From a virus (taxonomy: Duplodnaviria > Caudoviricetes), in the IMG/VR virus record IMGVR_UViG_3300043538_000065, positions 1 through 58,218 of that record: 58,218 bases of DNA; one strand, given 5' to 3'. Below are positions 4,891-53,873 of the stretch, piece after piece. Made by a program: the position numbers and the translations under genes. A model generated the notes under the pieces. That model searched no databases. It was not told where the DNA came from and saw only the letters and a list, made by a program, of their open reading frames with translations. Each line of letters begins with the position of its first letter. The stretch's first letter is position 1.

Positions 4891-5262
4891 CTATGTTTTT
4901 GTAAACTGAGTGTCGTTGAACCGCTGCAACGACGCGATGTGCCGATCCAATCCCTGATGCAGCTTGCCCAAGTCATCTCGGATCAGGAGATTGTCTTGCT
5001 CCATGTTACCCTGTCGCTTCGCGAGCTGACCTTGTCTGTCCTCAACCAAGGAAAGGCGGCGATCGGTATTTTTCAGATCAGTAAGGCTGGTTTCGACATT
5101 GCCGACGCGCGTACTCATCACGCGGATTTCGCCGGTCAAAGATGTGTGGTTCAGGTCGATCTTCCCGCCCAGTTTGACCACAAAAACCGTAACCGAAATG
5201 ATGTTGCCTAGAATGGCTACCACTCCGACAACGAGGGCAACGATGACAGATGGTTCCCACAT
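4891..5262 (-). CDS. TM plus coiled-coil protein in lysis region
   Basis: N-terminal TM then heptad-like region. Confidence 0.7.
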   Translation of the reverse strand: MWEPSVIVALVVGVVAILGNIISVTVFVVKLGGKIDLNHTSLTGEIRVMSTRVGNVETSLTDLKNTDRRLSLVEDRQGQLAKRQGNMEQDNLLIRDDLGKLHQGLDRHIASLQRFNDTQFTKT

Positions 5263-33608: not shown

Positions 33609-34286
33609 CTAAGCGGCTAATTGCAACGCATTACGCAGTGTCTGATTCCGTCCCTCCTCGTCAAGCTTAATCAGACTGTCTTGGAAGGCTGACCAAGACC
33701 TGCATGCAACGACCTCGTTGTTCCGCTCCCACTCGGCGCGCGCTAACTCATAGGCCCGCTTCTGCTTGTGGGTCAATCGGCCCTTTTTCGGCGGAGCGAT
33801 TTCTTCCGGGATCATCACTGCAGGCAAAGGGCGCTCACGGTTTTCCACAGCTCTTATCTGATCAATCATGGCGTCGCTGATCACGGCGGGCCGTTTCCTT
33901 CCCCCGGCAGTGTCCACGTACATAATCCGCGACACGCCTGGAATGCTTTCGATTCGACGCTTATGCGCGAGAATGTCCCAGACAAAAACGAAGATGTAGC
34001 CCCGGAACATCAGCCGTGTGACGTCGACCCCACGGCCGCGGCGGATGATGGTTTCTTCGGTCTCGGGCACGAACATGCCAAAGCGCCGGGCTACCAGATG
34101 CGCGGCGGCCGTCCGTTCGCTGTTCGGATGTGCTTCGATCACATGCCATTGCGGCACGGCGCCGGCCACAATTTCAGCCAAACGCTGATTGCCCGGCGTG
34201 TAATCCACGATATCGCCGATGGCAAGATCGCCTCGAAGAGCCGACCGTACCTGTTCCAAATTCCCTTTTTCCACTGCCATCAGCAT
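33609..34286 (-). CDS. NusG-family (RfaH/LoaP-like) late antiterminator
   Basis: WHVI...PNSE..AA.HL, LMFRGYIFV, IPGVSRI; occupies the Q position. Confidence 0.88.
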   Translation of the reverse strand: MLMAVEKGNLEQVRSALRGDLAIGDIVDYTPGNQRLAEIVAGAVPQWHVIEAHPNSERTAAAHLVARRFGMFVPETEETIIRRGRGVDVTRLMFRGYIFVFVWDILAHKRRIESIPGVSRIMYVDTAGGRKRPAVISDAMIDQIRAVENRERPLPAVMIPEEIAPPKKGRLTHKQKRAYELARAEWERNNEVVACRSWSAFQDSLIKLDEEGRNQTLRNALQLAA

Positions 34287-35908: not shown

Positions 35909-35989
35909 ACCGCACCGGAATTGTACGCTTTAGGGGTTGACTACTATGAATAGTCATAATAGGTTACCTCCATAAAGCAGGGGTTTCAG

Positions 35990-36916
35990 ATGACTTCGAT
36001 TGTGAGCGTTTACCGTCGCTGGCCGACACGGGCCGATTGCATCCGGCATATGGAGGAAGTGCGATGGGGCGATAAGCCGATCTGCCCCTACTGCGGAGCA
36101 GATCGCGTCTCGCGCAACCGCGACGACAGCCGCGGAGCGACGGCGGAACGCTGGAAATGCCAACGCTGCATCAAGTCGTTTTCGGTCACGGTCGGAACGA
36201 TCTTCCACAACACGCATGTCGATTTGCAGCGCTGGTTTTTGCTGATCTCGCTCATGATGTGCGCGAAGAAGGGACTGAGCGCGATGCAGGCGGCGCGCGA
36301 TCTGGAAATGCGCCGCCCTACCGTGTGGAGCATGATGCATCGCATCCGCGCCGCGATGAAGGATGACGGCGAATTGCTGTCCGGCCTTGTCGAAATGGAC
36401 GAAGCGTTTATCGGAGGCAAGCCGCGCAAGGGCACGCGCAAGGACATGGACGATGACGGCCCGCGCGATCCCGGCTCTAAGACGCCAGTGGTCGCCGCAA
36501 TCCAGCGTGGCGGCAAGGTAAAGGCCCGCGTGATGAAACGGTCGGAGTTGAACGCCAACGTGTTCAAGGCGCTGGTGTACAACTGGATGAAGCAGCGCGA
36601 GACCGTGCTGACAACCGACGAACTGCCGAGCTATCGCAACCTTGCCGACGTGATTCCGCACCGCATGATAAATCACTCCCGTCGCTATTCGCAGAAAGAT
36701 GCGACCTTCGATCTTGGTTTCGGCATGACGCACACCAATACGATTGAGGCGTTCTGGTCCATCGTGCGCCGCGCGATCATGGGGCAGTTCCACCACGTCA
36801 GTCAGAAATACCTGCCGCTGTACATGCGAGAGATTTGCTACAGGTATAACGACCGTATCGACCAATGCGGCTTGGACGGCGTGCTGAATTTGGCGTGCAA
36901 CGGGCGTCAAGGCTGA
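35990..36916 (+). CDS. IS1595-family (ISXO2-like) DDE transposase
   Basis: CPYCG..WKCQRC Zn ribbon, GTIFH.T, VEMDE, TDE, HTNTIE.FW. Confidence 0.95.
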   Translation: MTSIVSVYRRWPTRADCIRHMEEVRWGDKPICPYCGADRVSRNRDDSRGATAERWKCQRCIKSFSVTVGTIFHNTHVDLQRWFLLISLMMCAKKGLSAMQAARDLEMRRPTVWSMMHRIRAAMKDDGELLSGLVEMDEAFIGGKPRKGTRKDMDDDGPRDPGSKTPVVAAIQRGGKVKARVMKRSELNANVFKALVYNWMKQRETVLTTDELPSYRNLADVIPHRMINHSRRYSQKDATFDLGFGMTHTNTIEAFWSIVRRAIMGQFHHVSQKYLPLYMREICYRYNDRIDQCGLDGVLNLACNGRQG

Positions 36917-37440
36917 CCCTCCAATGATGTTCGCACCTCATTGAAGATCGCGCGCGTCATCAATTCGCCGATGGGCTTGACCTGCTGCGCATTCGAGAGT
37001 GCGCCCAAGCGATCCTTGATGGCGCTCGCCAGTTTCCCGTCGCGGTCCATTCCGATTAGCTCGTGAGCGCCGACCGTTGCCCAGTCACGGCCGTCGCTCG
37101 TGAGGTGCTTGAAGTGGATGGCATCGACCGCACTATGAACTATTTGCGCTACCGCGCGCCGCTGCTGAGGGTCCGGCCTGCGTCGTTCAACACGCGCAGG
37201 CGCAGGCTCCGATACCTGGGGCTGCGATCCTCGCATATCCGCCTGCCGTTGGATCAGATACGGCTTCAGCAGCGCCTCTTTCGCAACCCTCGGCTCTTTG
37301 CTCAGCATCCCAAACAGCGCATCAGCAGCCGCTGAGATATCGCCATGGCACTCATGCAAAGCCATGAAGGCCAGCGTAGCCAATCGCGAGGCCGCCAAGT
37401 TGATGCCAGCAGTCTGCAGCTTCTCCTTAAGCAAGGTCAT
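36907..37440 (-). CDS. IS passenger hypothetical protein
   Basis: AGGAG RBS; inside TIRs. Confidence 0.7.
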   Translation of the reverse strand: MTLLKEKLQTAGINLAASRLATLAFMALHECHGDISAAADALFGMLSKEPRVAKEALLKPYLIQRQADMRGSQPQVSEPAPARVERRRPDPQQRRAVAQIVHSAVDAIHFKHLTSDGRDWATVGAHELIGMDRDGKLASAIKDRLGALSNAQQVKPIGELMTRAIFNEVRTSLEGQP

Positions 37441-48935: not shown

Positions 48936-49100
48936 CTACCGCCCCGCCCGCTTGTGGATCCTGAGATCGTCCGGCGCGCGCAGATGCGCGACCAAGGCCG
49001 CGCCCAACAGCAGCGCCAGCATCACGGCAATGCCCATCAATGGCGTCCGCAGGTCGCCGAACAGGTCCAGTCCGTCGAGGTCGATGGCGAGCGGCATCAT
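48936..49100 (-). CDS. Small TM protein
   Basis: ATGA coupling; one TM. Confidence 0.5.
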   Translation of the reverse strand: MMPLAIDLDGLDLFGDLRTPLMGIAVMLALLLGAALVAHLRAPDDLRIHKRAGR

Positions 49101-49318
49101 GTGCTCCACATTCCCTTGAGGTAGCGGAAGACGAACGCGGGCCATCCTGCGATCATCGCCAGGGTCGCCAGCACCATCCGGATACGCACTGCCGTCATCT
49201 GCGATCTTGCAGCAAAGGTGTTGTCGACGATGCCAAGCCCACCGAGCACGAGCCAAAGCACCCCGCCGATCGACAGGTAGACCAGCGCTGGCGTGATGAG
49301 GTCGTCGGGTGACATCAT
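49097..49318 (-). CDS. Small two-TM protein
   Basis: ATGA coupling; hydrophobic segments. Confidence 0.6.
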   Translation of the reverse strand: MMSPDDLITPALVYLSIGGVLWLVLGGLGIVDNTFAARSQMTAVRIRMVLATLAMIAGWPAFVFRYLKGMWST

Positions 49319-49677
49319 GGAAACGATCCTCCATCACGACTGTCGGAATCGTCGCCGTCGAAGCCATCATCTTCATCGTCGCCGTGGTCGCGATATGGAA
49401 TCGCGGGCGTGTAGGATCGCTCCGCGTAATTCATGACGGTCTTTTCGTCCGTCACGGTGTAGGAGAAAATCGACGAGCCGCCGTAGTAATGGCTGGACCA
49501 GGTCACCTCGTTCGGAGCGGCGATCTTCGGAACATCGATGCGCAGCATCTTGGCGCCGAAGCGCTCTTCCTCCCGGGCCTTGCCGACGTGGCGGCGATGG
49601 CCGAATATCTCGACAATGGCCCATTCCCAGGTTTCGGTTTCTGGCGTCGGGGCAGCGATATCGGCAGGTTCGGACAT
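49315..49677 (-). CDS. Conserved phage hypothetical protein
   Basis: WAIVEIFGHRR..G...E....G...LRIDVP...YGGSSIF. Confidence 0.75.
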   Translation of the reverse strand: MSEPADIAAPTPETETWEWAIVEIFGHRRHVGKAREEERFGAKMLRIDVPKIAAPNEVTWSSHYYGGSSIFSYTVTDEKTVMNYAERSYTPAIPYRDHGDDEDDGFDGDDSDSRDGGSFP

Positions 49678-49796
49678 CGGACGCGTTCCACTTTTTTCGA
49701 GACAAAACTTCTCACGCTCGGAAACGACCGGGCGCGCGGCAGATCGGCGATACGCAAGGGGAAGCAACTGGAACGCGGGGAACTTAAAAAGACGCG

Positions 49797-49943
49797 TTAG
49801 CGAGGCAACGGGACCTCGCGGATGTGAGAGATGGCGCGCGCCGGGACGCGGCGCGGCTGGATCATGGCGACGGCGATGCACAGCAGGAACGCCAGACCGA
49901 GCAGGATGGGCGAGATGGCGTCCAGGAATGCGAGGAGCGTCAT
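49797..49943 (-). CDS. Small TM protein (48 aa)
   Basis: ATGA coupling; translated manually. Confidence 0.5.
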   Translation of the reverse strand: MTLLAFLDAISPILLGLAFLLCIAVAMIQPRRVPARAISHIREVPLPR

Positions 49944-50188
49944 GGCCGGTACTTCCTCTCGACGCGCAACGGCTTGTTGTCGTGGCCGCGCAGCGCGTAA
50001 GCCTGCACGAAGCCATCAAGGCTCGCCCGGGTCAGGAAAATATCGCCGTCGTCATTTTGCAAAAGGCGCAGTCCGCTGTGCTTGGCCCCGGCGTCGATAT
50101 GCCAAAGGCCTCCGCACTTGCCGGCGTCCGCCATCCTCATACGGACAACACGCTTGTGTCTGTTTCTCGAGGGATGCTTCGCTGTCAT
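49940..50188 (-). CDS. Hypothetical protein
   Basis: GGAGGGCGGC-ATGA start. Confidence 0.55.
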   Translation of the reverse strand: MTAKHPSRNRHKRVVRMRMADAGKCGGLWHIDAGAKHSGLRLLQNDDGDIFLTRASLDGFVQAYALRGHDNKPLRVERKYRP

Positions 50189-50403
50189 GCCGCCCTCCGC
50201 GTTCGGCGGCGCTTTGGCATGATGCGCCATTCAAGTCCCAAGGCTTCAAGCAACTGGGCCGGCGGGTTGCTTTTGCCGGACAAGAAGGTGCTAACGTTCC
50301 CATCATGGACGGCGTGCGCTACACACCAGGCGCGCATTCCTCCTCGACTTCGATACGGCGCGCTCTTGCGAAGAAGCAGCCTGCGAACCTGGTTCAGGGT
50401 CAT
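50185..50403 (-). CDS. Small XRE-like HTH protein
   Basis: MRAWC..H.V..GNVS.FLSGK..P...LLEALGL. Confidence 0.7.
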   Translation of the reverse strand: MTLNQVRRLLLRKSAPYRSRGGMRAWCVAHAVHDGNVSTFLSGKSNPPAQLLEALGLEWRIMPKRRRTRRAA

Positions 50404-50573
50404 GCCGCCCTCCCCTCAGCCGATGATCTCGGCATAGACCGCAAGGGCTGCACGCGCGTTCGGCTTGCGTTTGCCTTCGATGAGAGTTGTGGATGCCCGC
50501 CGAACGAGACTTGCGGCCCGGTCGGCGGGCGGTCTCCACTGGGAGTCTTGCAAACACCCCACGGAGAAAATAG
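50400..50573 (+). repeat. Cassette leader copy 1 (junction, promoter, two hairpins)
   Basis: About 75 bp nearly identical to 50966-51041, then structurally conserved hairpins. Confidence 0.9.
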
Positions 50574-50891
50574 ATGCCGCAACGCTTTGATGAGACTATA
50601 GAAGAATTCGGTCAGCGTCGCATAAAAGAGGCAGAGCAAAATCAGCAACGCGCAACAAGACTTCACGAATTTGCCGTTGAGCCCAAAGACCTCTACGCAG
50701 ATGCCGTAACGTTCCACGAGGATCGTGGCGTTCTCCGCATCGGCTTCCATTGCACCCGACCGGAAAGTGCCGACGCTATCGGTTACCCTACCGTCCCCGT
50801 CGCGCGCGTCTCCTTCCACTTCAAGATGTTCAAGCACTACTTTGAGACATGGCTCCAAACGGAGGCCGGCCGCGACGCGCTGACGGAGTAA
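50574..50891 (+). CDS. Counter-oriented cargo gene 1, hypothetical
   Basis: GGAG RBS; globular 105 aa (LYADAV...VLRIGF...PVARV). Confidence 0.75.
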   Translation: MPQRFDETIEEFGQRRIKEAEQNQQRATRLHEFAVEPKDLYADAVTFHEDRGVLRIGFHCTRPESADAIGYPTVPVARVSFHFKMFKHYFETWLQTEAGRDALTE

Positions 50892-50965
50892 GCCACGCCA
50901 GAATGCAGGTCGCAGAACCGGGTCCATCGGCATGATCGCAAGATAGGGCGGGTGCCTCAGCACGA

Positions 50966-51145
50966 TCATGCCGCCCTCCGATCAGCCGATGATCTCGGCA
51001 TAGACCGCAAGGGCTGCGCGGGCGTTCGGCTTGCGTTTGCCGACCTCGCGGCATTGTGTGTTGATTGCCCGCCGGGCGAGCCTTGCGACTCACCCGGCGC
51101 GCGGTCTTCGATGGGAGTTGCAACACAACCATCGGAGCTAAAATC
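50966..51145 (+). repeat. Cassette leader copy 2
   Basis: Partner of 50400-50573. Confidence 0.9.
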
Positions 51146-51433
51146 ATGAACACGATCAGTGCAACCGGCATCGGCTGGTACAACCGCGAGGACTATCCGC
51201 GCATTCTCGAGATCATGGAGGATGCGGATGTCCTGCCGACGACCTACGATACTTGGCGCCAGAAAGCCGAGGGCTTGGAACGCCAGATCAAGGCGAGCGG
51301 GGCAATTGTGGTCCGCGCCGTAATCGAGCCAAAGGAGTTCGTCGCCTGGTGCGCTGCGCGCGGTCTGAAGGTCAACGCCAAGGCACGCACCGCATTCGGC
51401 TCCGAATGCGCCTACCGGAAGATCAACCCCTGA
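51146..51433 (+). CDS. Counter-oriented cargo gene 2, hypothetical
   Basis: GGAG RBS; 95 aa (WYNREDY...LP.TYD.W...AE...F.AWC...G...AR..F). Confidence 0.8.
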   Translation: MNTISATGIGWYNREDYPRILEIMEDADVLPTTYDTWRQKAEGLERQIKASGAIVVRAVIEPKEFVAWCAARGLKVNAKARTAFGSECAYRKINP

Positions 51434-51466
51434 GACCTGTACGGCAATCATGGGGCGCTCCTGATC

Positions 51467-51730
51467 TCAGCCGATGCGCGCGAAGATGTCGGCAAAGACT
51501 GCGTACACAGCCCGGTCCGGCACGCGAGACGTGCCCTTAAGCCAGCGCTTCGCCGTGCTTTTGTCCTTGCCGGTGGCGTCCGCGAGGAACTGCTCGGTCT
51601 TGCAAGGCGCGGCGAACTTGGCGAGATCGGAGAAGGAAATTCTCTTATCCACAGGGCATATTTTTTTGGGTTCATATTTGAACCCTCGCGGATTTGACAA
51701 CCGCCGCGTGTAACCCCTTGATTCCACCAT
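51467..51730 (-). CDS. CII-position HTH protein
   Basis: LADATGKDKSTAKRWLKG HTH; downstream of cro. Confidence 0.65.
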   Translation of the reverse strand: MVESRGYTRRLSNPRGFKYEPKKICPVDKRISFSDLAKFAAPCKTEQFLADATGKDKSTAKRWLKGTSRVPDRAVYAVFADIFARIG

Positions 51731-51989
51731 GACGCACCCCCGCACGCAAAAACGAACTCCGGTTGCAACCCGCGCGATCTACATGCTACGTTCCGTTTGT
51801 AGCCAGTCCGTAGTGCAACTTCACGCTGGTACAGTTGCGTTTCTCGCACATGACGACAGACGCGCGAAGCAAGCGAAAATCTCACACTTCGCGAAATATT
51901 TTCCGTTAGTGCAAAACCAGACGATGTGCTTGCCTGCCCCTTTAGTCGTAGGGGCTGGGAATGGACAATGTGGTTCGCTTCCCGCGGCG

Positions 51990-52232
51990 TCATGTCGGGA
52001 CTTCCTCGGATACTTTAGCTGCCAGCCGGGTCAAGATTTCAGCAGTCAATCCGGCAGACTTGGCCGTTTCCGTCGTCAGAAGCCGCTCCCACCATTCGGA
52101 CGGGATAGTGTCTCGCTTGAACCACTTGCGCACGACCGAACCGTCATTGATCCCCAACTCGGCCGCCATCGCCTCGCGGGAGCGCCACAAGTCGATGATT
52201 GAGCGGAATGAGGTGGGCACAGAATCAGTCAT
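51990..52232 (-). CDS. Cro-like protein, probably leaderless
   Basis: IIDLW.S...MAAELG.....VRKW.KRD.IP..WW; divergent from repressor. Confidence 0.8.
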   Translation of the reverse strand: MTDSVPTSFRSIIDLWRSREAMAAELGINDGSVVRKWFKRDTIPSEWWERLLTTETAKSAGLTAEILTRLAAKVSEEVPT

Positions 52233-52239
52233 GCCCGAA

Positions 52240-52316
52240 GTATTGGGACATAACGTCCCGATTTGCAAGGGCATCATGGTACGGGACAGAAAATCTCCTG
52301 TGGGACATTCTGGCCC
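52240..52316. promoter_or_regulatory. OR-like region: three operators and cro promoter
   Basis: GGGAC-N5-GTCCC-like sites at 52245, 52283, 52302; TTGCAA-N17-CAATAC on minus strand. Confidence 0.8.
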
Positions 52317-52317
52317 T

Positions 52318-52632
52318 ATGGGAAAAGACTACGAAAAACTGTCCGACAGCGATTGGCGTTCGCGGTTCCAAGAACGACTTAACCGCATTCAAGGCAAGCG
52401 GAGCCACGACGCCATGGCTGATATTCTCGGTATGTCAGTCGAGAGCTGGAAGAAGTGCGTCAATAGAGGTGACAGTTTTCCGCTTCGGAGGTTGCCTAAA
52501 CTTGCCTCCCTCGCTGGAATCCCCATCGAAAGCCTGATCAAGGGTGACAGAGACGACGAACTCCCAGCTCCGGTGGAGCGATATCGGCAGCGAACAATTC
52601 AGTCGAAGACCGGCACCCGACGAACGGGCTAG
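52318..52632 (+). CDS. CI-like XRE repressor without peptidase domain
   Basis: HTH MADILGMSVESWKK; divergent from cro. Confidence 0.8.
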   Translation: MGKDYEKLSDSDWRSRFQERLNRIQGKRSHDAMADILGMSVESWKKCVNRGDSFPLRRLPKLASLAGIPIESLIKGDRDDELPAPVERYRQRTIQSKTGTRRTG

Positions 52633-52645
52633 CTAGTGAGCGCAA

Positions 52646-52969
52646 ATGAACCGCACCTTTTATCTCTTACTGGCGACGGCGACGCTCGCAATATCTCCCG
52701 CTCACACACAGGAGGCGGGCGTTAAGCTCCCTTATGCCGCATGCATAACCGAGGAAGCCTTTAAGAAATTTGACGATATACGCCGATCTGGTGACCGCGA
52801 GGCCCTCGAAAAATATTATATGGCCTCAGCCTTGGCCGGCGTTTGTTTGCCGCTCAAAGTTGGCCAGCGCGTCTTCAAGGAGGGTCTTGGCCAAGGCTTT
52901 GCGATCATAAAGATTCGGCCCAAAGGCATGTTCCAGAGCTATTTCACCTACGATATGGTGGTTGAGTAA
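52646..52969 (+). CDS. Exported protein downstream of repressor (possible superinfection exclusion)
   Basis: Signal peptide; follows cI. Confidence 0.7.
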   Translation: MNRTFYLLLATATLAISPAHTQEAGVKLPYAACITEEAFKKFDDIRRSGDREALEKYYMASALAGVCLPLKVGQRVFKEGLGQGFAIIKIRPKGMFQSYFTYDMVVE

Positions 52970-53021
52970 CGAGTGAGCGGGCCTATAATGAGGCCCAGTT
53001 CCAAAATGTAATTTTCTTCTT

Positions 53022-53064
53022 GGGACAATTTGGCCTTGACTTCGGGACATTTTGTCCCGAATAT
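53022..53064 (+). promoter_or_regulatory. OL-like region: two operators and promoter
   Basis: GGGACAATTTGGCCT at 53022, GGGACATTTTGTCCC at 53044; TTGACT-N17-GAATAT. Confidence 0.8.
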
Positions 53065-53100
53065 GTTTCCCGTGAAACAACCTCACGGGAATCAGTTCAA

Positions 53101-53361
53101 ATGGCTGAGCCAGCCACCAAACCGCGCTTAGATGGTTTTGCGCCCGGCGCCCGTCCTATCTGTGTGTTTTGCAATGCACCTTGGTCGGACGACATGATCA
53201 AGGTGCTGGCGGAATCCGAGGTTGAAGTCGGGTACTACGGCGATCCCGAAGGCGTCGATACCATGGCGATTATCGACATCGCCTGCGCCGCATGCGAGCG
53301 GCTGATCTATCGCAAGGAATGCCGCGGCAACACGTTCAGTCAACTGACGGTGTTGAAATGA
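53101..53361 (+). CDS. Zn-binding hypothetical protein
   Basis: CVFC...CAAC; first gene after promoter. Confidence 0.7.
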   Translation: MAEPATKPRLDGFAPGARPICVFCNAPWSDDMIKVLAESEVEVGYYGDPEGVDTMAIIDIACAACERLIYRKECRGNTFSQLTVLK

Positions 53362-53378
53362 CCGCCGGCCCACCTGCT

Positions 53379-53873
53379 TCAGCCGTGTTTTTGCAGCCGC
53401 TCGACATGAAACGCGTCGAGCGAAGCAACAACCGCGCGCACGTTGGTCAAGTGACGCTTCAGGTCGGCCAGCCGAAGGGATGGCGCCATCTTGTAGCGGG
53501 GCAACAATGTCTCGGCGAAGGCGGCATCAATGCTCGGTTCGATCTGAGACCATGGAAAATCTTGGCTCTTTCCCACCGGTTGATGGGCGAGGCGATTTCG
53601 AACCGGAAGCAGTTTCTCGATCTTGGACTTGATCGCGTCCCATTCCTTGAGGTCGGCGTCTGCGGTCTCGCCGACGAGGCTCGCGTGCAAAAGCCCGTTC
53701 GTCAGTTCAAGCTGCCGCCACAGCGATCGTGTGTGGTAGTACGCGACGCCAGCAATAACGATGTGGGTGCGCATGCATGTCCAGCAGGTGAAAAGCAGCC
53801 TGTTGTCGACGTTCGCCCACTCCGCCACGCACATGCCGAGCCATCGGTAGAATTCGTCCACCTCATTTTCCAC
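53379..53873 (-). CDS. HEPN-like helical protein, counter-oriented
   Basis: RNRLAH (RxxxxH) motif; LG.....WA.VD N-terminus; GGAG RBS. Confidence 0.7.
   Translation of the reverse strand: MENEVDEFYRWLGMCVAEWANVDNRLLFTCWTCMRTHIVIAGVAYYHTRSLWRQLELTNGLLHASLVGETADADLKEWDAIKSKIEKLLPVRNRLAHQPVGKSQDFPWSQIEPSIDAAFAETLLPRYKMAPSLRLADLKRHLTNVRAVVASLDAFHVERLQKHG

Follow-up and report, generated by a model that had tools for sequence, protein, structure and literature searches.

A stop-free reading frame that joins cro to the next early gene is kept open across divergent prophages, consistent with a translation relay

The early region of a complete provirus record of 58,218 bp (IMG/VR record IMGVR_UViG_3300043538_000065; Duplodnaviria, Caudoviricetes), hereafter the window, contains a long open reading frame (ORF) that begins on the stop codon of the cro-like gene. 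Genes in the window lie mostly on the minus strand, and so does this frame, which we call bridge ORF 1 (51448-51993, 181 codons); it runs from the cro stop across a 244-nucleotide (nt) spacer, continues through the entire CII-like small helix-turn-helix (HTH) gene in the +1 frame of that gene, and ends in an ATGA overlap with the following ORF. Equivalent frames exist in related loci, in what is a family of Bradyrhizobium-type prophages. Counting the window, 14 loci have a cro-like gene; in every one, the bridge ORF begins with an ATG that shares an ATGA with the cro stop, and the frame, rather than being interrupted in most relatives, is intact in all 14, with differing cro genes and differing inserted genes. 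We lean towards the view that the bridge is a translation relay that counters polarity, such that selection would act on uninterrupted translation and not on a protein. We infer translation of the frame, and a benefit from covering the transcript with ribosomes, from a frame that exists, is kept open and is coupled.

Related loci (numbered with the prefix L) were collected in several ways. Degenerate DNA patterns for the C-terminus of the HTH protein gave L013-L016, L020 and L021-L023; HTH alignment in species genomes gave L017 (a Bradyrhizobium) and L018 (a Pseudolabrys metagenome-assembled genome); and a search with the long repressor protein described below, in 401 genomes of the genus Bradyrhizobium, gave L028-L032. 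The phage collection contained no useful DNA relative, with a single 99-nt match. The 14 loci counted are the window, L013-L015, L017, L018, L021-L023, L025, L028, L029, L030/L033 and L032. We dropped L024, L026 and L027, which have only a 19-mer in common with the others, at the start of an ordinary long protein or of a 29-codon ORF with no cro-like gene upstream; L031, which matches residues 71-199 of the repressor only and has no cro-like ORF; and L019, which is on the same contig as L016. L002-L010, found through a gene for a 481-amino-acid (aa) methyltransferase, and L001 were left uncounted, having almost nothing in common with the window in the early region.

The bridge ORFs of the 14 loci have 68, 91, 148, 154, 160, 163, 164, 181, 191, 240, 251, 253, 278 and 517 codons. 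They cross the spacer and, where an HTH gene exists, all of that gene, always in its +1 frame; the HTH gene is absent from L025 and L032, where the bridges have 68 and 91 codons. At the far end, the bridge stops between -4 and +2 nt from the start of the next ORF in 11 of the 14 loci, with ATGA, TTGA, TAATG or +2 spacing, and in the contig-end fragments L016 and L020 the frame is open to the contig end, ending GTGA and ATGA, respectively. Inserted DNA keeps the frame: this holds for cargo genes A and B in the window, for a 54-aa plus-strand gene in L014 and L015, and for extra tails in L014, L016 and L028. In L030/L033, a prophage of the genus Bradyrhizobium, the 517-codon bridge crosses a 91-aa gene and about 700 nt that contain a tRNA-Met gene (L030 3305-3382; in L033, inside ORF 932-2485) on the operon strand. 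A Shine-Dalgarno (SD) core (GGAG, GAGG or AGGA) is present at positions -16 to -5 of the bridge ATG in nine of the 14 loci, compared with 7.6% of background 12-mers.

Several comparisons show that the openness of bridge 1 is not simply inherited and is not a product of base composition. The cro-like proteins of these loci are mostly 21-36% identical (maximum 59%), and similarity among six aligned bridge peptides is confined to DNA-conserved blocks; because the Cro proteins have diverged and the bridge peptides cannot be aligned outside those blocks, openness is not simply a matter of inherited sequence. When seven HTH genes were resampled synonymously with phage codon usage, the probability that the +1 frame is open was 0.19, 0.06, 0.06, 0.41, 0.14, 0.017 and 0.044, and the +2 frames of the same genes contain one to four stops each, as expected (the CII-like gene of the window has no stop in its +1 frame and three in its +2 frame). 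Within the same loci, the +1 frames of the HTH genes have no stop in 573 codons, as against 3.5 stops per 100 codons in the cro-like genes and 3.3 per 100 in 19 downstream genes, none of which is without a +1 stop. Under a first-order Markov model, the probability of an open frame in the spacers by themselves is 0.02-0.12. Over all bridged intervals, 3,193 codons in total, the bridge frame contains no stop and the other two forward frames contain 105 and 81. In the real genes of the phage, by comparison, the +1 frame is open in 9.5% of 85-codon windows, in 1.1% of 165-codon windows and in none of 940 windows of 240 codons. Taken together, the resampling, the control genes, the spacers, the gene windows and the SD enrichment mean that chance and codon bias fail for bridge 1. 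As a family property, bridge 1 and the chain of coupled ORFs to which it belongs are clearly more than chance, and codon choice in the HTH genes specifically avoids stops in the +1 frame.

The possibility that the bridge is open as a side effect of a gene on the opposite strand was considered and rejected, since it is with the most stop-rich forward frame, not with the bridge, that the near-open reverse frame is codon-aligned. That reverse frame is an observation in its own right: on the reverse strand of the bridged intervals, one frame has 41 stops in 3,193 codons, where the remaining two have 124 and 99; it has no stop in the spacers of six of six loci and is not codon-aligned with the bridge frame. 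It may serve transcripts that run from the cargo genes to the repressor gene.

We propose that the minus-strand early lytic operon of these phages carries, right after cro, a module foreign to its reading direction, made up of a regulatory spacer, a CII-like gene for a small HTH protein, and at least one cargo gene in the opposite orientation. Ribosomes finishing cro would enter the stop-free frame where its ATG overlaps the cro stop, in most cases downstream of an SD-like core, would be relayed across the module by termination and reinitiation, and would leave on or beside the start codon of the next lytic gene; the sequence of the peptide would be free. The benefit could be that the transcript stays translated and is thereby less subject to Rho-dependent polarity, that RNA polymerase is helped through a region of operators and convergent promoters, or that ribosomes are brought to the next gene, including those with weak starts such as TTG in L014 and GTG in L016. 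Avoidance of Rho polarity would be a reasonable mechanism. An earlier note on this DNA, made from the sequence alone, had proposed that such frames are selected to keep ribosomes on the lytic transcript; that idea is partly supported, in that none of the 14 loci has a stop in the frame and the HTH genes avoid +1 stops, whereas the coupling argument cited for it turned out to be weak, as did the evidence of the antisense frames. The further proposal of the note, that lysogenic cargo is silenced by antisense, found no support in the analysis.

A number of points weigh against a relay of this kind. The bridge ends 24, 40 and 220 nt short of the next ORF of at least 50 codons in L017, L021 and L029, respectively; five of the 14 loci lack an SD core; and in a pure relay, a frame as long as 517 codons with a tRNA gene in its path would be unusual. 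L025 was recovered with a pattern that itself contains ATGA, and is not an unbiased sample. The bridged intervals are partly defined by the ORFs themselves, with both ends matching independent landmarks in 11 loci, and the probabilities given above assume independent lineages, which is only roughly true. As for Rho, the bridged RNA is not clearly similar to Rho utilization (rut) sites, with C/G maxima of 1.35-2.8 in 80-nt windows, for which there is no control, and a NusG-like antiterminator encoded elsewhere in the window could handle Rho without a bridge. A stream of ribosomes in the +1 frame should also disturb initiation at the HTH gene. Lastly, the two further bridges of the window can each be explained individually by a commonly open frame and copied junctions.

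Another reading is that the bridge is a regulatory upstream or overlapping ORF whose translation tunes the CII-like gene, its start site being either occluded or unfolded by the ribosomes, and sets the balance between lysis and lysogeny, with no role against polarity. The frame always covers the HTH start, in the +1 frame, and would be coupled to translation of cro, and a DNA-conserved block with TTGCAA-type palindromes in the spacer fits a control region. We nevertheless regard this reading as unlikely: L025 and L032 are bridged with no HTH gene at all, in L014, L016, L028 and L030/L033 the frame goes on well beyond the HTH stop, in the window it takes in cargo cassettes, and exact coupling to the start of the next gene, seen in 11 of the 14 loci, is not something that such a role requires.

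The spacer has features of its own. A DNA block that is about 90% conserved between the window (51761-51791, plus strand) and L014 (about 4985-5075) lies inside a spacer that is otherwise 71% identical, and contains the palindrome GGTTGCAACC together with an inverted GCAACT/AGTTGC pair. Judged by its sequence, this block resembles regulatory DNA with TTGCAA-type palindromes. A plus-strand promoter of the establishment type picked out by eye there (TTGCAA-17 nt-CTACGT, 51763-51791) is unsupported, as the promoter scan did not call it. Further along, the CII-like ORF contains, in its 5' part, an 18-bp sequence that is perfectly palindromic, GGGTTCATATTTGAACCC (51668-51685); it adjoins a run of seven T residues and may be an operator.

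Overprinted viral genes are often disordered and poorly conserved, and bridge 1 might be a genuine overprinted gene for a basic, disordered, fast-evolving protein, the other two bridges of the window being by-products. A frame that is open with an ATG in 14 of 14 loci, and stop avoidance at the codon level, would both be expected of such a gene. Against this, bridge length varies from 68 to 517 codons and its content follows whatever is inserted; nothing can be aligned outside the DNA-conserved blocks; and the bridges match no Pfam or PHROG family. Codon structure points the same way: in the spacers the third codon position has the lowest GC content, the reverse of real genes here. The best block between the window and L014 has three synonymous differences among seven (counted by eye), with no signal of purifying selection, and changes in the region of the bridge N-terminus alter the bridge peptide and leave unaltered the repressor encoded on the opposite strand, in what are small samples. 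A search of the bridge 1 peptide against 5.8 billion proteins returned only two predicted homologues, a result that is uninformative because gene callers rarely call such frames. Overall, we judge an overprinted protein gene to be improbable.

In the window, bridge 1 is part of a longer chain. Seven minus-strand ORFs, from cro (51990-52277) down to position 49797, are linked by six exact ATGA overlaps at 51993, 51451, 50969, 50403, 50188 and 49943, and in each the TGA is the stop of the preceding ORF. This chain had been described in the earlier note and was found again at the same coordinates, and its six junctions are also present in a census of NTGA junctions across the window. ORF 49940-50230 has an earlier in-frame ATG, and the coupled ATG is the one at 50188, as the note had given. 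Every coupled ATG is preceded, at 5-8 nt, by a purine-rich, SD-like stretch. The census, for which both joined ORFs had to have at least 45 codons, counted NTGA junctions on both strands, 74 on the minus and 44 on the plus; since NTGA coupling is the rule in this phage, a single ATGA is unremarkable.

The chain starts with the cro-like gene itself, whose longest ORF is 51990-52277 (minus strand) with a likely start at the ATG at 52232, and whose TGA overlaps the bridge 1 ATG; its product has a weak YdaS/Cro-type Pfam match (E=0.053), and its counterpart in L014 matches PHROG 8008 'DNA binding protein' (7.5e-5). A GAGG core is located 8-11 nt 5' of the bridge 1 ATG. The CII-like gene crossed by bridge 1 (51467-51745, minus strand; likely start ATG 51730, MVES...) encodes a protein that has a weak HTH_31 match (E=0.065) and is 29% identical to the family in the relatives. 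Bridge ORF 2 (50966-51451, minus strand, 161 codons; AGGAG 6 nt ahead of its ATG) is codon-aligned antisense to cargo gene B (51146-51433, plus strand, 95 aa; PHROG 4753, E=1.5e-21) and then passes through a repeat, copy B. Bridge ORF 3 (50400-50969, minus strand, 189 codons) is likewise codon-aligned antisense to cargo gene A (50574-50891, plus strand, 105 aa; no Pfam or PHROG match) and then passes through repeat copy A. There follow three minus-strand genes: a 72-aa gene (50185-50403), rated real, which is ATGA-coupled at both ends, has a 45%-identical homologue in L001 and has three stops in its +1 frame; a real-looking 82-aa gene (49940-50188), also ATGA-coupled and with three +1 stops; and a 48-aa membrane-type gene (49797-49943), which ends the chain with a TAA stop and has homologues at the same position in L013, L014 and L015.

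Not all of these junctions arose separately. Repeat copies A (50395-50573) and B (50966-51144) are one direct repeat of about 179 nt with 80% identity, limited by the start codon of a cargo gene on one side and by ATGA on the other. Read on the minus strand, the repeat comprises a decayed HTH gene (..KRKPNARAALAVYAEIIG stop), then the SD sequence GGAGG, and then ATG. Copy B, between the starts of cargo B and bridge 3, has a closed HTH frame with no start, and its HTH stop does not close any ORF of 30 aa or more; copy A retains an internally deleted HTH remnant of 48 codons, without the middle of the gene, followed by the SD and by the ATGA at which the 72-aa gene begins. A third and more distant copy is formed by the end of the CII-like gene, at junction 51451. 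Junctions 50969 and 50403 and, more distantly, 51451 are therefore not independent events, being copies of one repeat. The earlier note had rested its case on repeated exact coupling; the coupling is indeed exact, but the repetition is in part one junction duplicated with each cargo cassette. Both decayed copies in the window have lost the original HTH frame, through disruption or deletion, and retain an intact +1 frame.

Each repeat unit extends precisely from one start codon to another, divergent one, and the two units accompany different plus-strand cargo genes; the slot is occupied in L014 and L015 by an intact HTH gene together with the 54-aa plus-strand gene. This arrangement suggests that the slot holds a swappable cassette of regulator plus cargo. 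A plus-strand ORF of 65 codons (50952-51149) lies across copy B and ends in ATGA on the start of cargo B, and the homologous plus-strand frame in copy A overruns the start of cargo A by 25 nt.

Returning to the relay, the module of the window would have grown by two cassettes, each a cargo gene plus a decayed HTH copy, and with each would have come another SD-ATGA junction, copied along with it, in a phase that lets the relay continue. There would thus be three legs, bridges 1, 2 and 3, ending at the real 72-aa gene. Two statements of the earlier note on these links are borne out, namely that the three bridges look non-proteinaceous, matching no family and having a GC pattern that is not coding-like (0.54/0.63/0.52 by codon position in bridge 1), and that two of them are antisense to plus-strand cargo and one passes out of frame across the spacer and the CII-like gene. 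Open antisense frames over cargo genes, for their part, are ordinary. Synonymous resampling of the two cargo genes leaves the frame used by bridges 2 and 3 open in 52% of cases; in real genes of the window, 33% of stretches of 100 codons and 20% of stretches of 190 codons are open in the codon-aligned antisense frame; and an antisense ORF of 650 codons is present in the window. Moreover, cargo B homologues, which are present in 37 of the 401 Bradyrhizobium-genus genomes searched, are open in the same antisense frame in 11 of 15 cases, in unrelated contexts in those genomes. Exact-word searches with cargo A and B in viral contigs gave no relatives. What is left needing explanation for bridges 2 and 3 is only the match of phase, about one in three for each; cassettes are in the codon-aligned antisense phase in three of three independent cases. 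By themselves, bridges 2 and 3 hardly exceed chance, and their meaning comes only from the family pattern.

The same data bear on the reading in which there is no selection at all, and the bridges are a by-product of codon bias at 60% GC, of numerous NTGA junctions and of the duplication of one junction. The window abounds in long antisense ORFs, its minus strand has the 74 NTGA junctions, bridges 2 and 3 owe their junctions to the repeat, and 11 of the 15 cargo B homologues are open in the same antisense frame. An open +1 sense frame together with open noncoding spacers in 14 of 14 divergent loci is not explained in this way, nor is the enrichment of SD cores. For bridge 1, the absence of selection is strongly disfavoured, and we consider it very improbable as an account of the whole.

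Least credible of all is programmed -1 frameshifting, from cro into the bridge or from the bridge into the HTH gene, to yield fusion proteins in place of reinitiation: the bridge is the -1 frame of cro, the HTH gene is the -1 frame of the bridge, and in L020 the HTH N-terminus is in the bridge frame, but L020 is a single short metagenome contig that may carry an indel, no slippery site was seen (none was searched for), and the exact overlap of ATG and stop in 14 of 14 loci, with an SD core in nine of 14, indicates initiation rather than slippage. In L020 (12-287) the HTH N-terminus (..VMRES..) lies in the bridge frame and the remainder in the HTH frame; this switch could be either an indel or a real frameshift.

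Several known systems resemble parts of the proposed relay. In phage lambda, the region from cro through tR1/nutR to cII, with N antitermination, is a cro-cII spacer in which transcription can be lost. The bridge has the same position in its operon, and the remedy that we propose, by analogy, would be translation of the spacer rather than modification of the polymerase; neither a nut site nor an N-like protein was seen here (none was searched for). Plasmid leader peptides, in the tap/repA and repY/repZ pairs, are ORFs that deliver ribosomes. The bridges are like these in that the peptide is not conserved and the stop is on or near the downstream start (in 11 of the 14 loci), and differ in length and place, since the known examples are short, with tens of codons, and occupy 5' leaders, whereas bridges have 68-517 codons, lie inside an operon and extend over whole genes. 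That short upstream ORFs can serve solely to deliver ribosomes to the next gene is stated in a published review, which also describes NTGA (-4) junctions as the commonest and most efficient spacing for termination-reinitiation, and untranslated operon RNA as inviting Rho and polarity (PMC12548453). All six links in the window are exact overlaps of that type, as is the link from cro to the bridge in all 14 loci; in the coupled pairs described there, two functional genes are joined, whereas here three successive product-less ORFs overlap other genes. Overprinted genes provide the third comparison, as the MS2 lysis gene lies in the +1 frame of coat (PMC12548453) and Escherichia coli has antisense overlapping genes (PMC9927249). 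The likeness is a long alternative-frame ORF kept open across relatives; the difference, as far as these sources describe such genes, is that the known ones encode a defined protein, whereas the bridge has an unconserved sequence and a content that changes between relatives. Full-text literature searches, which do not extend to subscription journals, turned up no description of long, sequence-free bridging ORFs in prophage early operons. Thus, coupling and ribosome-delivery ORFs are known, and long sequence-free frames over a regulator, cargo genes and a tRNA gene in a prophage family appear, within the scope of those searches, to be new.

The opposite strand of the immunity region has a long open frame as well. 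A repressor ORF on the plus strand (51961-52632), with a conserved N-terminal motif (..VVRFPRRH..) beginning 29 nt ahead of the cro stop, is antisense to the entire cro gene and leads, without change of frame, into a cI-type HTH repressor, residues 136-220 of which match PHROG 2328 'transcriptional repressor' (2.6e-4). Across loci, the ORF starts 29-95 nt before the cro stop. The long form is present in eight of 10 loci examined, in addition to four comparable loci that were found by homology to the repressor, and among 28 database homologues with 50-82% identity, 19 of 21 aligned are the full-length form. Because the ..VVRFPRRH.. region varies mainly at third codon positions of the repressor frame, the N-terminus of the repressor is under protein-level selection. 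The antisense phase used by this ORF is hardly ever open in ordinary genes, with a probability of 0.0 for the cargo genes, and is open in 45-100% of cro resamplings. It is open over cro because the Cro proteins are nearly free of tyrosine, with three Tyr in 1,189 residues of 12 proteins (none in that of the window), compared with 2.25% in 14 long genes. From its sequence, the composition of cro looks as though it has been shaped by the overlapping frame. The arrangement resembles a selected antisense gene overlap or a long repressor isoform, and such an isoform may exist. The overlap supports the idea of selected open frames on both strands of the immunity region.

A broader proposition is that stop-free, sequence-unconstrained 'ghost' frames on both strands of the immunity region keep transcripts covered by ribosomes and thereby filter the evolution of the genome. 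We offer this tentatively, as something that is rather less likely to be true than false. If it is correct, cargo genes, decayed regulators, insertion sequences (IS) and tRNA genes could become established only in phases that preserve the frame, codon usage in the CII-like genes and the amino acid composition of Cro, with almost no Tyr, would have been shaped by overlapping frames, and translation would be a third solution to polarity, beside terminator-free design and antitermination of the N/Q type. Relays as such, if real, would mean that annotation pipelines that discard these ORFs miss a functional layer of phage operons, and that the sites at which morons and mobile elements can insert in a prophage are limited by reading phase as well as by position; they would also link translation to the lysis-lysogeny circuit in alphaproteobacterial phages that seemingly have no lambda-type N system. 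The 14 divergent loci would be a natural data set for the study of selection on "openness" without selection on sequence.

Other features of the window have a looser connection to the bridges. Beyond the chain are a 117-aa gene (PHROG 29525), a protein with an MT-A70 methyltransferase domain, a replication initiator and the NusG-like antiterminator (33609-34286, minus strand), which matches Pfam NusG (4.4e-12) and PHROG 6386 'transcription antiterminator' (5.3e-11) and which, by that similarity, probably bears on how the phage handles Rho and termination. A scan of 49000-53500 with Rfam, a search not aimed at nut sites, gave only sub-threshold matches at chance level, and a scan for promoters and terminators gave no promoter-like and two terminator-like sites, no more than in shuffled sequences. 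The earlier note had also reported the same upstream coupling at a HEPN-like gene and at an IS1595 element. At the former none was found: ORF 53379-53873 (minus strand) has no NTGA junction in which both ORFs reach at least 45 codons, and no Pfam match at E<=0.01. An RNRLAH stretch, similar to Rx4H, is visible in its translation. At the IS1595 element there is coupling, through TTGA rather than ATGA. The transposase gene (35990-36916, plus strand; Pfam DDE_Tnp_IS1595, 6.7e-33) sits between minus-strand genes, and a codon-aligned antisense ORF of 318 codons (35954-36910) covers it, TTGA-coupled to the upstream gene 36907-37440 and stopping 46 nt before the replication-initiator gene. This antisense frame would be open with a probability of 0.04 under the codon usage of the phage, and of 0.26 under that of the transposase itself.

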